Part shown: one piece after another, positions 9,275 through 33,590 of the stretch
Layout: every line of letters begins with the position of its first letter
How positions within the stretch are numbered: position 1 is the first letter of the stretch
Source of the DNA: Escherichia coli
Lineage (GTDB): Bacteria > Pseudomonadota > Gammaproteobacteria > Enterobacterales > Enterobacteriaceae
Reading direction: 5' to 3' (one strand)
Length of the DNA: 64,000 nucleotides
Assembly: GCF_013315695.1 (NCBI RefSeq)
Contig: NZ_CP054353.1
The notes under the pieces: model-generated
Told to the model about the DNA's origin: nothing
Seen by the model: only the letters and a program-made list of their open reading frames with translations
Databases searched by the model: none
Translations under genes and position numbers: made by a program

Positions 9275-9703
9275 TTAATCTCCCGTAAGTGGAACTAACA
9301 GCACATCGACCTCACTTGAGGTAATCACTCTTTTCGCCGAGCAGGATGCTCGCGAAAAGAAACTGTGATTGTGATTACCGCAAATCACCAAATCGAAATG
9401 ATGTTTGCGACAAACTTCCAGAATATGTTCGCTTAACTCACCGTAGGCAATAAACGTCTTGTCAACGGGATACCCCGCATCCTGAATTAACTTATCAAGA
9501 AAGCTTTGCGTTTCTTCCTGCATCACATTGCGTAAATCTTCAAGCATCGGCGCAGCTAATTGATTGTACATTTCCGGGTCGGAAGCGAGAGTAATTAAAC
9601 TGATGTGTCCCTTTACTGGCCTGGCGATAGATACCGCTTTTGCCAGCAGTTGCTGACTTTCCGGTGTAACCGCAACGGCGACAAGAATATTGCTATAGCT
9701 CAT
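9275..9703 (-). CDS. uspC: universal stress protein C
   Basis: 142 aa MSYSNILVAVAVTPESQ... Confidence 0.9.
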   Translation of the reverse strand: MSYSNILVAVAVTPESQQLLAKAVSIARPVKGHISLITLASDPEMYNQLAAPMLEDLRNVMQEETQSFLDKLIQDAGYPVDKTFIAYGELSEHILEVCRKHHFDLVICGNHNHSFFSRASCSAKRVITSSEVDVLLVPLTGD

Positions 9704-10482
9704 AACCTGTTCCTTATTCTGTGAACTTCAGGTGACATTAAAGCTTTACTCCTAATGGAGAAACGACGCAATCCCAACTCAGTTAAACAGGTAAATATTA
9801 GTCTGGTCATTAGTAAATACAATTAATTAATTGCTCTTGGTTATCATATGATTTCAACTGTATTTATAAGAAAATAATGTACTGATTTCCCATATTGAAC
9901 AAGTGGTTAATATATGTAAAACATTTTATTAATATTAGGTTGATTGTTGCCTTTCTTTGTAGTTAATTAGTTTGTTGTGCGGTAAGTGTTTGTTTAAAAA
10001 TGGCTTATCTGGTATTGCATTAAAGCGATTATTTATAGCAGATGATTATTTACGGTGAGTTATTTTAACTGTGCGCAACATCCCATTTCGATTATTCCTG
10101 TTTCATTTTTGCTTGCCAGTGTAGCGAAAAATTTTTTAACAGATTGAAATACACCCAAAACAAAAGTATGACTTATACATTTATGTTAAGTAATTGAGCG
10201 TTTTGCGTGATCTGCATCACACATTATTGAAAATCGCAGCCCCCCTCCGTTGTATGTGCGTGTAGTGACGAGTACAGTTGCGTCGATTTAGGAAAAATCT
10301 TAGATAAGTGTAAAGACTCCCTTCTATTTGTAAGGACTTATTAAACCAAAAAGGTGGGTCTGCTTATTGCAGCTTATCGCAACTATTCTAATGCTAATTA
10401 TTTTTTACCGGGGCTTCCCGGCGACATCACGGGGTGCGGTGTGACCGCATAAAAATAAAGTTGGTTATTCTGGGTGGGAATA
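9704..10482 (+). promoter_or_regulatory. flhDC upstream regulatory region, about 780 bp, no IS element present
   Basis: Long AT-rich leader/promoter region upstream of flhD; no IS1/IS5-like ORFs or terminal repeats. Confidence 0.5.
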
Positions 10483-10833
10483 ATGCATACCTCCGAGTTG
10501 CTGAAACACATTTATGACATCAACTTGTCATATTTACTACTTGCACAGCGTCTGATTGTTCAGGACAAAGCGTCCGCTATGTTTCGTCTCGGCATAAATG
10601 AAGAAATGGCGACAACGTTAGCGGCACTGACTCTTCCGCAAATGGTTAAGCTGGCAGAAACCAATCAACTGGTTTGTCACTTCCGTTTTGACAGCCACCA
10701 GACGATTACTCAGTTGACGCAAGATTCCCGCGTTGACGATCTCCAGCAAATTCATACCGGCATCATGCTCTCAACACGCTTGCTGAATGATGTTAATCAG
10801 CCTGAAGAAGCGCTGCGCAAGAAAAGGGCCTGA
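10483..10833 (+). CDS. flhD: flagellar master regulator FlhD
   Basis: 116 aa from ATG 10483 ([24 protein letters not shown]...); track ORF starts at GTG 10474. Confidence 0.93.
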
Positions 10834-10835
10834 TC

Positions 10836-11414
10836 ATGAGTGAAAAAAGCATTGTTCAGGAAGCGCGGGATATTCAGCTGGCAATGGAATTGATCACCCT
10901 GGGCGCTCGTTTGCAGATGCTAGAAAGCGAAACACAGTTAAGTCGCGGACGTCTGATAAAACTCTATAAAGAACTGCGCGGAAGCCCACCGCCGAAAGGC
11001 ATGCTGCCATTCTCAACCGACTGGTTTATGACCTGGGAACAAAATGTTCATGCTTCGATGTTCTGTAATGCATGGCAGTTTTTACTGAAAACTGGCTTGT
11101 GTAATGGCGTTGATGCGGTGATCAAAGCCTACCGTTTATACCTTGAACAGTGCCCGCAAGCAGAAGAAGGACCGCTGCTGGCATTAACCCGTGCCTGGAC
11201 ATTGGTGCGGTTTGTTGAAAGTGGATTACTGCAACTTTCCAGCTGCAACTGCTGCGGCGGCAATTTTATTACCCACGCTCACCAGCCTGTTGGCAGCTTT
11301 GCCTGCAGCTTATGTCAGCCGCCATCCCGGGCAGTAAAAAGACGTAAACTTTCCCAGAATCCTGCCGATATTATCCCACAACTGCTGGATGAACAGAGAG
11401 TACAGGCTGTTTAA
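10836..11414 (+). CDS. flhC: flagellar master regulator FlhC
   Basis: 192 aa [27 protein letters not shown]...; zinc-binding Cys cluster near the C-terminus. Confidence 0.95.
11345..11371 (+). promoter_or_regulatory. sigma28 (FliA) promoter of the motAB-cheAW operon, inside the flhC 3' end
   Basis: TAAACTTT (11345-11352), 11-bp spacer, GCCGATAT (11364-11371); matches the TAAAGTTT-N11-GCCGATAA consensus. Confidence 0.7.
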
Positions 11415-11472
11415 CTGATACGGTGTGGCGAAACATTCCAGCAGCGGTAACGATGTACCGCTGCTTTTTTTT
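11379..11472 (+). ncRNA. motR: candidate MotR sRNA (motA 5' UTR-derived)
   Basis: About 94 nt between the sigma28 promoter and the intrinsic terminator at 11439-11472; coordinates approximate. Confidence 0.35.
11439..11472 (+). terminator. rho-independent terminator downstream of flhC
   Basis: Stem gcagcggta / taccgctgc followed by T8. Confidence 0.7.
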
Positions 11473-11540
11473 GCCCCTATCGCGTGTTAACGCCTGACGA
11501 CTGAACATCCTGTCATGGTCAACAGTGGAAGGATGATGTC

Positions 11541-11822
11541 GTGCTTATCTTATTAGGTTACCTGGTTGTTCTCGGTACAGTTTTCGGCGGTTATTTGATG
11601 ACCGGTGGAAGCCTTGGAGCACTCTATCAACCCGCTGAACTGGTGATTATTGCCGGTGCAGGGATTGGGTCGTTTATCGTCGGCAATAATGGCAAAGCGA
11701 TTAAAGGCACGCTGAAGGCGCTGCCGTTGCTGTTTCGTCGCTCCAAATACACCAAAGCAATGTATATGGATCTGCTGGCTCTGCTTTATCGGTTGATGGC
11801 GAAATCGCGGCAGATGGGGTAA
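11541..11822 (+). pseudogene. motA: motA 5' fragment (codons 1-93), interrupted by IS4
   Basis: GTG start, MLILLGYLVVLGTVFGGYLMTGG...AKSRQMG, then stop TAA formed by the first bases of IS4. Confidence 0.9.
11808..11819 (+). repeat. IS4 target-site duplication, left copy (cggcagatgggg)
   Basis: Identical 12-mer at 13246-13257 directly flanks the other IS4 end. Confidence 0.9.
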
Positions 11823-13245
11823 TGCCAGTCAGTTAAGCAACTGACTGGCTCTTTTTCGGGGCTGTGGGGTATTTCCAGGGCCTCTCCTTTACCACTCTCG
11901 GGAAGGCCCTTTCCCTTCTTGTCGGTAATTTCACAAGTTGTCCCATACTTGCAAGATCGCGCATCAGCTCCGGTATACGTCCCGGTGAAGCGCCCTGCAA
12001 TGTCATCAGCATTCTCATCACCATTCCGCATGATTCTGAGAAACTCAGTTGATTCGGCCAGTAACCTTTCAGATGTTCCGCCATTTTAATCATCTGATAT
12101 CTCACCAGATTATAAGCCAGTAAGACACCCCACAGCTCTTGCTCCACAAGCTCCGGTTTTTTACTTCTCAGCGTCAGCCTGCTCAGTTGCATCGTCTGTT
12201 TTATCTCCCTGTATCCCAGTTCGATTTCCCAGCGATGACTGTACAGATCCGCCATTTCTCCTCCGGGGAAGCGCATGGCGTCCGTCATCGACGTCAGCAG
12301 ATGGCAGACTTTTCCTTTGCGCGTCACGGTCAGCAGGCGGGCTGTCACTTCATTTCCCAGTCCCGGCCACTTTTTTCGTGCCTGCGGGCTGGTTTTCAGC
12401 TTCACCAGATGATCGCCTTTACCCAGTTTTCTGATCTCTTCATATTGCGCTCCCTTTCTGAGAGGTATCATCCAGTGGCGGTGTTCTCCCGCCAGGCTCC
12501 AGGCATTTAACAGTCCCAGTGAGTAATAACCTTTATCCATTAACGTCAGAGTGTTATCGCCGGTTTGTTCTATAAGTTGCTCAGCAAGCTCATTTTCGCT
12601 GTTCTTCATCGTGCCGAAGGCTGCAGCCGTCAGCAGATGGCTGGTCAGTTCCATCTGGCAGACCATTTTGACCTGCGGGTAGAGCGCCGGGTTCCCGGCA
12701 TGTGTCTGGCGGGGGAAGGCTGCATCGTTCTCTGGTGTATCCGGTGTGCGCCAGAACACACCATCGATGGCCAGCAGGGTCAGGCCGCACCAGTGCGGAT
12801 GCGGCGTGGCGTTATGCCAGAGCTGCGCTGTTTTCGTGAACACGCGGCGGACAGCCTCACTTCCCAGGCGCTGGCGGGCCTGAATAACGGCACTGGGGGC
12901 AACGAAGGGGCGATTGCCCGGCAGCATGATGTCCAGGCGATTCACAATCTGGTGAAGAGGTTCTTTACGCTCAAGCGCCATGCCAACAATACACCAGACC
13001 ATCATTTCGAGGGGAAGACGGCGCTTGCGTAGCGTTACAGTACCTGATTCGGCAAGGCAACGAGAGATGAGTTCGGGGTCGAGGTAATCCCCCAGAGAAG
13101 TCAGTGGGTTACGCAGAGAATCGTAACGGGATACCAGATCAAGAGCCTGTCCAATGTGCATAAAAAAATCCGGAAACAAGTGAGCGTTTCCGGATTCTTA
13201 CACAGCCACTGGATCGGTCAACTGATCCTTAACTGATCGGCATTA
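11820..13245 (-). mobile_element. insertion sequence IS4, complete, 1426 bp
   Basis: Imperfect terminal inverted repeats (left taatgccagtcagttaag, right-end reverse complement taatgccgatcagttaag, 16/18 match); one 442-aa transposase ORF; length equals the canonical IS4 size; flanked by 12-bp direct repeats. Confidence 0.92.
11833..13161 (-). CDS. insG: IS4 transposase InsG (DDE family)
   Basis: 442 aa from ATG 13161 ([48 protein letters not shown]...); track ORF starts at an upstream TTG (13179). Confidence 0.9.
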
Positions 13246-13257
13246 CGGCAGATGGGG
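13246..13257 (+). repeat. IS4 target-site duplication, right copy (cggcagatgggg)
   Basis: Identical to 11808-11819. Confidence 0.9.
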
Positions 13258-13862
13258 ATGTTTTCGCTGGAACGCGATATTGAAAATCCCCGTGAGAGTG
13301 AGATCTTCGCCAGCTACCCACGCATCCTTGCGGATAGCGTCATGCTTGAATTTATCGTCGATTATCTGCGCCTGATTATCAGTGGTCACATGAACACCTT
13401 CGAAATCGAAGCTCTGATGGATGAAGAGATTGAGACGCACGAAAGCGAGGCAGAAGTCCCGGCGAACAGTCTGGCGCTGGTCGGGGACTCACTTCCGGCG
13501 TTTGGTATTGTTGCGGCTGTAATGGGGGTCGTTCACGCGTTAGGTTCAGCCGATCGTCCTGCCGCCGAGCTGGGGGCGCTTATCGCTCATGCGATGGTGG
13601 GGACTTTCCTCGGTATTTTATTGGCTTACGGATTTATTTCCCCATTAGCGAGTGTTTTACGTCAGAAAAGCGCCGAAACCAGCAAAATGATGCAGTGCGT
13701 CAAAGTCACTCTGCTTTCAAATCTGAACGGTTACGCACCGCCTATCGCCGTTGAGTTTGGTCGCAAAACGCTCTATTCCAGCGAACGTCCGTCGTTTATT
13801 GAGCTGGAAGAGCATGTGCGTGCGGTGAAAAATCCGCAACAACAGACGACAACCGAGGAAGC

Positions 13863-13866
<4 letters not shown>
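13246..13866 (+). pseudogene. motA: motA 3' fragment (codons 90-295)
   Basis: In-frame continuation RQMGMFSLERDIENPRESEIF...QQQTTTEEA; stop overlaps the motB ATG. Confidence 0.9.
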
Positions 13867-16758
<2,892 letters not shown>

Positions 16759-33491: not shown

Positions 33492-33590
33492 GCCTGATGC
33501 GCTATGCTTATCAGGCCTACATAGCCCCTGCAATATATTGAATTAGCAAGACTTTGTAGGCCGGATAAGGCGTTCACGCCGCATCCGGCA
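33492..33590 (+). repeat. BIME: two inverted REP elements
   Basis: gcctgatgcgctatgcttatcaggcctac (33492-33520) and gtaggccggataaggcgttcacgccgcatccggca (33556-33590). Confidence 0.75.

Follow-up and report, generated by a model that had tools for sequence, protein, structure and literature searches.

In the 64,000-nucleotide stretch of Escherichia coli DNA analysed here (the window), the stator gene motA is interrupted by a copy of IS4. A preliminary description of this locus took the copy to be transposition-competent and recently inserted, based on its uninterrupted transposase ORF, its two terminal inverted repeats and its identical flanking duplications. The locus therefore raises the question of whether the insertion is indeed young and the element able to move, or whether this is an old allele that has been inherited. 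The answer that we favour, and hold with considerable confidence, is that an intact IS4 recently transposed into motA at codon 93/94 of a B2-like E. coli, at a site that is recurrently targeted.

Structure of the insertion

The gene order in the window is ftnB, araFGH, otsBA, uspC, flhDC, motA::IS4, motB, cheAW, tar, a tap remnant, cheRBYZ, flhBAE, argS and ptrB. The insertion and the gene that it splits are made up as follows:

11541–11819, plus strand: motA 5' fragment with GTG start, codons 1–93, giving a 93-aa product
11808–11819: left target-site duplication of 12 bp, CGGCAGATGGGG
11820–13245, minus strand: IS4 element of 1426 bp
11820–11837: terminal inverted repeat at the end distal to the transposase start, TAATGCCAGTCAGTTAAG
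13228–13245: terminal inverted repeat at the transposase-proximal end, CTTAACTGATCGGCATTA
13246–13257: right target-site duplication of 12 bp, CGGCAGATGGGG
13246–13866, plus strand: motA 3' fragment, codons 90–295 including the duplicated codons

IS4 breaks motA after codon 93 (codon 93/94), and a TAA supplied by the first three bases of the element (11820–11822) stops the 5' fragment at 93 aa. An ATG at 13252 opens a 204-aa ORF in the 3' fragment, which public assemblies annotate as a gene. Removal of IS4 and one repeat in silico restored an intact motA ORF of 888 bp.

The element boundaries given in the preliminary description proved exact, with both terminal inverted repeats in place. When the right end is read as its reverse complement, the two ends (TAATGCCAGTCAGTTAAG and TAATGCCGATCAGTTAAG) form an 18-bp inverted repeat with 16 of 18 positions matching, and the termini show no difference from those of the IS4 of K-12. 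The two copies of CGGCAGATGGGG are identical, also as previously described; the chance of a 12-bp match at fixed boundaries is 4^-12 (about 6e-8). Over its whole length the window copy is separated from K-12 IS4 by 4 of 1426 nucleotides (99.72% nucleotide identity), and copies with 100% identity to it occur in many E. coli genomes, where they are annotated as 'IS4-like element'. It is the only IS4 copy within the 64-kb window. No signs of decay were found in it, whether frameshift, stop, clipped end, or lost or diverged duplication. Everything by which IS4 can be recognised from sequence is present (size, 18-bp ends, duplication length, transposase and target arms), and on these grounds the feature is an authentic, structurally complete IS4 of the IS4 family and IS4 subgroup, an element that is already known.

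The transposase and the hairpin before its start

Two features of the element are the transposase gene and the structure that precedes it:

11833–13161, minus strand: IS4 transposase ORF of 442 aa (ATG at 13161, stop at 11833)
13169–13194, minus strand: strong hairpin followed by T7, directly upstream of the transposase ATG (fold −31.8 kcal/mol, z −6.0)

The transposase ORF is full length and without interruption, in agreement with the earlier claim; a TTG further upstream, at 13179, is an alternative start that extends the product to 448 aa. The protein matched the Pfam families Nterm_IS4 (7.6e-33) and DDE_Tnp_1 (1.1e-31); with the NCBIfam model NF033592 'IS4 family transposase' it scored 304.5 bits (cut-off 115). 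Residues 307–321 match the Y(2)R(3)E(6)K signature exactly. Candidate DDE residues are D133, D209 and E314, both aspartates being placed by motif and spacing rather than by structure; the spacings of 76 and 105 fit the D(60-110)D(100-150)E rule. The IS4 family has been defined by the YREK signature together with this DDE spacing (De Palmenaer et al., 2008; PMC2266710). By comparison with InsG of K-12, the window transposase has two changes, A304G and L326R, which adjoin the YREK motif. The identical 442-aa protein is present on at least 1000 public contigs.

The hairpin at 13169–13194 looks like a terminator or leader that would face transcription entering the element from outside. A promoter-like sequence, TTGACC-16-AAGAAT with an upstream TG, was also observed in the transposase-proximal end (13194–13221), followed by the stable hairpin and U7. 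The promoter-like site and the hairpin before the ATG could together act as an attenuator or as a barrier to read-through.

Age of the insertion

The window without IS4 and one repeat (62,562 bp) aligned end-to-end with the genome of MSB1_4I with 5 SNPs and one 1-bp indel, and at the insertion site it aligned without a gap to the intact motA of that strain. Alignment with AF3 showed 13 mismatches and an IS1 in torY of AF3. Identity over 62.5 kb was thus 99.99% for MSB1_4I (a rectal swab isolate from Australia) and 99.98% for AF3 (a blood culture isolate from the UK), and both have an empty site and an intact, annotated motA. The five closest complete genomes (99.9–100% identical over 24.7 kb) align from the duplication onward and have motA annotated. 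Across 5,426 complete E. coli genomes, neither the left nor the right junction in the window orientation was found, nor was the left junction in the opposite orientation. The empty site in MSB1_4I and AF3, and the absence of the junction from the complete genomes, bear out the claim that IS4 was recently inserted here. The downstream genes motB, cheA, cheW, tar, cheR, cheB, cheY, cheZ, flhA and flhE are still full length, which fits a recent inactivation of motA.

The divergence of the window from its nearest empty-site relative is approximately 8e-5 per site. A commonly quoted clock for E. coli is 2–5e-7 substitutions per site per year. The two would then have shared a common ancestor roughly 80–200 years ago, a figure with wide error that depends on 5 SNPs and a quoted clock, and this sets a very rough upper bound of one to two centuries on the age of the insertion.

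The reasons originally given for recency, an intact ORF and perfect repeats, were accurate as observations yet are weak evidence of age, since both are also seen in the resident IS4 of K-12, whose ORF is intact and whose 12-bp duplication is perfect. Judging from general substitution rates, 24 duplicated bases would be unable to resolve ages below about 10^5 years.

Two further differences between these genomes were observed. The only SNP in motA between the window and MSB1_4I lies 47 bp downstream of the insertion, at 13304 (T versus G); AF3 matches the window at this position and the change is therefore private to MSB1_4I. The IS1 in torY of AF3 is an IS1A (29102–29870 of L042), which is missing from the window and is a further sign of IS activity in the clone.

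The same junction in other E. coli

The exact 93-aa truncated MotA is present on 84 contigs in a public protein collection. Carriers of the insertion were sought in contigs fetched for this product and for the 204-aa C-terminal fragment. The left junction, CGGCAGATGGGG joined to TAATGCC, was found in nine further contigs, and right junctions with the same duplication were found in others, so that carriers of both IS4 orientations are listed here:

Left junction, window orientation: L004, L005, L006, L007, L010, L011
Left junction, opposite orientation (other IS end): L008, L009, L012
Right junction, window orientation, same duplication: L015, L019, L021, L022
Right junction, opposite orientation, same duplication: L016, L017

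L016 and L012 derive from one sample. Several of the carrier sequences, from metagenome or Logan contigs, break off within IS4, and for these the intactness of the element cannot be read. Contigs L013, L020 and L023 were excluded as carriers because they are cut at contig ends, as were L014 and L018, which are scaffolds with N gaps; none of the five contains an IS junction. Of these, L013 (Logan contig ERR5194660_3048) stops one base past the hotspot (…CAGATGGGGA) and contains no IS sequence, possibly because occupied and empty sites coexist in this sample, or perhaps only by chance. In the metagenome contig L007, from another background, flhC is broken into two ORFs, of 66 and 118 aa (9296–9874), which suggests either that the flagellar regulon carries a further lesion or that the assembly is at fault.

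The allele in the window background is found in several independent samples (L004; L015, which is 100% identical over 10.7 kb; L019; L021; and L022), indicating that the carrier clone is circulating and is not a one-off. These samples also bear on the reading that motA::IS4 is an assembly artefact, in which a repeated IS4 was misplaced into motA. IS4 is multi-copy in this lineage and assemblers err at multi-copy repeats, but both junctions are present with a matching 12-bp duplication, and both were recovered independently in the same background, from L004, L015, L019 and L021. We consider the probability of an artefact to be negligible.

Comparison of 10-kb left flanks distinguished at least seven backgrounds besides that of the window, lying between 26 and about 260 SNPs apart (up to 2.6%). 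L005 (orientation A) and L009 (orientation B) are separated by 26 SNPs in 10 kb, with IS4 oppositely oriented. On the left of the junction, background-specific SNPs come as close as 19 bp, and on the right as close as 54 bp. For L009 and L008, both of the opposite orientation, there are complete genomes with a 100% identical 10.28-kb flank; as the junction is absent from the complete set these have empty sites, and the insertions in L008 and L009 must also be recent. The complete genome closest to L006 matches its flank at only 99.6%. Three other backgrounds were thus compared with complete genomes, and in two of them the nearest ones have empty sites.

Distribution over backgrounds as distant as these might be taken to mean that the junction is ancestral, the insertion being old and inherited through a deep clade; the identical 93-aa MotA and the junction in strains up to 2.6% diverged over 10 kb would agree with this. 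Such descent is difficult to reconcile with intact motA in the five nearest complete genomes, with a junction found in none of 5,426 complete genomes, with the occurrence of both IS4 orientations at the same base (as in L005 and L009, with their 26 SNPs in 10 kb), and with empty sites in the flank-identical (100%) complete relatives of L008 and L009. We regard deep ancestry as very improbable, and effectively already refuted by these comparisons. The presence of the junction in divergent backgrounds and in both orientations instead indicates target-site homoplasy. Judged by these junctions, motA codon 93/94 is a recurrent IS4 hotspot, at which strains may have the same junction without having inherited it from a common ancestor.

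It had been proposed that the insertion be looked for in close relatives, and that the same motA::IS4 allele across a deep clade would speak against a young insertion. Close relatives lack the insertion. The deep-clade criterion would formally count the junction in distant strains against recency, and would have answered falsely. Given the strong site selectivity of IS4, an identical junction and duplication in two strains is no proof of common descent, and markers based on IS junctions can mislead.

Target-site preference of IS4

Fifteen other IS4 target sites were reconstructed, and seven of these, picked regardless of flank similarity, were used to derive a consensus. Duplications at the 15 sites are 11–13 bp long, and 12 bp at motA. 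The consensus (n=7) is symmetric, AAAAA-C-S-S-[11-13-bp duplication]-S-S-G-TTTT, and the motA site reads gAAAtcg[CGGCAGATGGGG]atgTTTT. An A-run lies about 3 bp to the left of the duplication and a G with a T-run about 3 bp to the right, the arms being approximately 18 bp apart. A striking specificity for target arms has been reported for the IS4 subgroup, as has a family rule that the duplication spans about one helical turn (PMC2266710). As the target is symmetric, the same position can be hit in both orientations.

When a matrix of the seven sites was applied to the window, the motA site ranked 38th of 187,590 position-by-length combinations (top 0.02%), with a score 3.7 SD above the mean and above that of the resident site in K-12. 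On this crude seven-site matrix approximately 15–20 other distinct sites in the window outscore motA, so that fit to the target may not be a sufficient explanation of the recurrence. Loss of motA that is tolerated or selected for, or features missed by so small a matrix, probably also contribute.

The sites at typA, degS-mdh, adhE and in NCTC86 (L036, L037, L033 and L032 respectively) are bidirectional intrinsic terminators, with an A-run, a GC hairpin and a T-run; at such terminator-type sites the duplication is the hairpin. The target choice of IS4 may thus track terminator-like DNA.

The match of motA to the target consensus also bears on whether a single motA::IS4 allele was spread between lineages by homologous recombination. 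E. coli does recombine, and contig ends alone cannot prove that each carrier in orientation A is independent. However, two orientations need at least two events, and the background-specific SNPs so close to either side of the junction leave almost no room for an imported flank; moreover, fit to the consensus itself predicts recurrence, in keeping with the arm specificity of the IS4 subgroup (PMC2266710). Spread of one allele by recombination is in our view an improbable explanation, and repeated transposition into the same site is preferred.

A literature search found no report of IS4, or of an IS4 hotspot, in E. coli motA, and nothing relevant to IS4 proper was found in PMC12844343 or PMC10044804. 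The recurrence at motA may be a new observation, although one predictable from a known property of IS4. More tentatively, and as a possibility that we would not yet rate as probable, this could be an undescribed, species-wide hotspot at which IS4, in both orientations, repeatedly and independently generates Mot- E. coli in human-associated populations. Were this so, the absence of the insertion from those close relatives that could be checked would fit variants that are short-lived and either conditionally advantageous or mildly deleterious, and the hotspot would provide a contingency-like route to shutting off the motor with the flagellar genes kept. The recurrent hit in a stator gene is a small natural case of parallel motility loss in gut and bloodstream E. 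coli, with IS4 acting as a mutagen that is directed by sequence.

IS4 copy number and competence for transposition

IS4 copies per genome were counted with a query that joined 1 kb of IS4 to unique mot-che flank. The five closest genomes have about 18, 18, 12, 15 and 15 copies and Rb-50 has 7, by comparison with a single copy in LF82 and other typical B2 strains; the median for the species is likewise one. The raised counts in close relatives indicate that IS4 has multiplied in exactly this B2 sub-lineage, and the unequal counts among near-identical genomes point to ongoing turnover by gain or loss. The expansion, to approximately 12–18 copies versus one, marks a clone whose genome IS4 is currently reshaping.

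Copies identical to that of the window in all 1426 bases were found at a minimum of six other sites, each with its own 11–13-bp duplication:

NCTC86 site
adhE terminator
ygeA
typA terminator
degS-mdh spacer (in the close relative MS 21-1)
aroA

The exact nucleotide variant also occurs in genomes with 15–32 copies (IAI39, CE10, N32 and RMDEC465). The expansion in the lineage and the identity of the window copy with IS4 at many other sites uphold the view that the element looks transposition-competent.

Intact sequence might nonetheless conceal an element that is functionally inert in this host, through repression or a silent defect, the motA copy being the last product of a past burst. IS4-family elements are typically under tight down-regulation, a strong hairpin precedes the transposase ATG, and the substitutions A304G and L326R relative to K-12 InsG adjoin the YREK motif. 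An inert element does not readily account for the exact variant at many distinct sites with fresh duplications, including in the 15–32-copy genomes, or for copy numbers that differ among very close relatives (18, 18, 12, 15 and 15), and we consider it unlikely. On this indirect evidence the IS4 variant is very probably transposition-competent, and we infer that the element is still active, as the preliminary description supposed.

The course of events would have been as follows. By analogy with IS10 and IS50, the DDE transposase would bind the 18-bp terminal inverted repeats, the ends would be joined to a target cut with a 12-bp stagger, and repair of the stagger would leave the duplication of CGGCAGATGGGG. 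The motA site would have been chosen for its fit to the IS4 target arms, and the insertion would have taken place after the split from MSB1_4I-like relatives, in a lineage with a dozen or more IS4 copies.

Predicted consequences for motility

Only 93 of the 295 residues of MotA remain; the missing C-terminal two thirds contains the MotA_ExbB channel domain (from the domain annotation of the C-terminal fragment). A further feature lies at the point where transcription from motA enters the element:

11824–11849, plus strand: perfect 11-bp-stem hairpin followed by TCTTTTTC (from a scan; fold −19.7 kcal/mol, z −2.7)

This hairpin is located just inside IS4 and, in the reading direction of motA, is trailed by UCUUUUUC; it resembles an intrinsic terminator in the motA sense. 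The insertion is consequently predicted to be polar, and probably is so, on motB-cheA-cheW. The phenotype predicted from these features is a flagellate cell that is paralysed and non-chemotactic. An Rfam scan of 9500–15000 gave no match.

Another lesion in the flagellar genes was observed in flhB, where W345* (TGG to TGA at 23591–23593, codon 345) removes the last 38 residues. This stop is common to the window, MSB1_4I, AF3 (annotated 'internal stop') and L015 but is not in L016. Its presence in MSB1_4I and AF3, which have an empty site, shows that it predates the IS4 insertion; the phenotypic effect of the hit in motA is uncertain because the flhB stop was already in the lineage.

Other observations were made in the surrounding DNA. 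Of the chemoreceptor gene tap only about 150 bp survive (approximately 19134–19285), between tar and cheR; in relatives the annotation treats this remnant as a pseudogene, a frameshifted and partial 'Tar ligand binding domain'. Two 59-nt repeats at 33532–33590 and 48737–48795 are 80% identical and contain GCCGGATAAGGCG...GCATCCGGCA; these look like REP-type extragenic palindromes.

Comparison with known systems

The founder of the IS4 family, the K-12 IS4 (insG; NC_000913.3 4502090–4503515), likewise has 1426 bp, a 12-bp duplication and a 442-aa transposase. It differs in setting, being a single copy in the yjgZ-nanX intergenic region, whereas the window IS4 lies in motA in a lineage with a dozen or more copies. 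The transposases of IS10 and IS50 (Tn10 and Tn5) share the DDE triad and YREK signature seen in the window IS4. These two are the biochemically characterised members of the family and are the model for the cut-and-paste mechanism proposed here; no biochemical characterisation of IS4 itself was found in the literature searched. In IS10 the duplication is 9 bp long and itself encloses a symmetric consensus. IS4 is unlike IS10 in this respect, with duplications of 11–13 bp and A-run/T-run arms outside the duplication.

Within typical B2 strains, the sole IS4 of CFT073 (gspK-glcA locus) is 99.86% identical to the window copy. It exemplifies a dead copy, with a 1-bp indel and annotation as a frameshifted pseudogene; the window copy has no such lesion. 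The idea that the single IS4 of typical B2 strains is an old, diverged relic with 96.5% identity was discarded: flanking sequence accounted for the mismatches, and the element itself in CFT073 is the 99.86% match, with one frameshift.

Motility is known to be altered by insertion sequences that hit the flagellar regulon, through IS1 and IS5 insertions upstream of flhDC in K-12 and through IS-mediated loss of flagellar genes in Shigella. IS-associated changes in the flhDC region have been described (PMC12844343). The events in K-12 and Shigella alter or delete the master regulator, whereas the IS4 of the window hits a stator gene at one precise base; motA::IS4 should therefore leave the flagellar assembly genes expressed.
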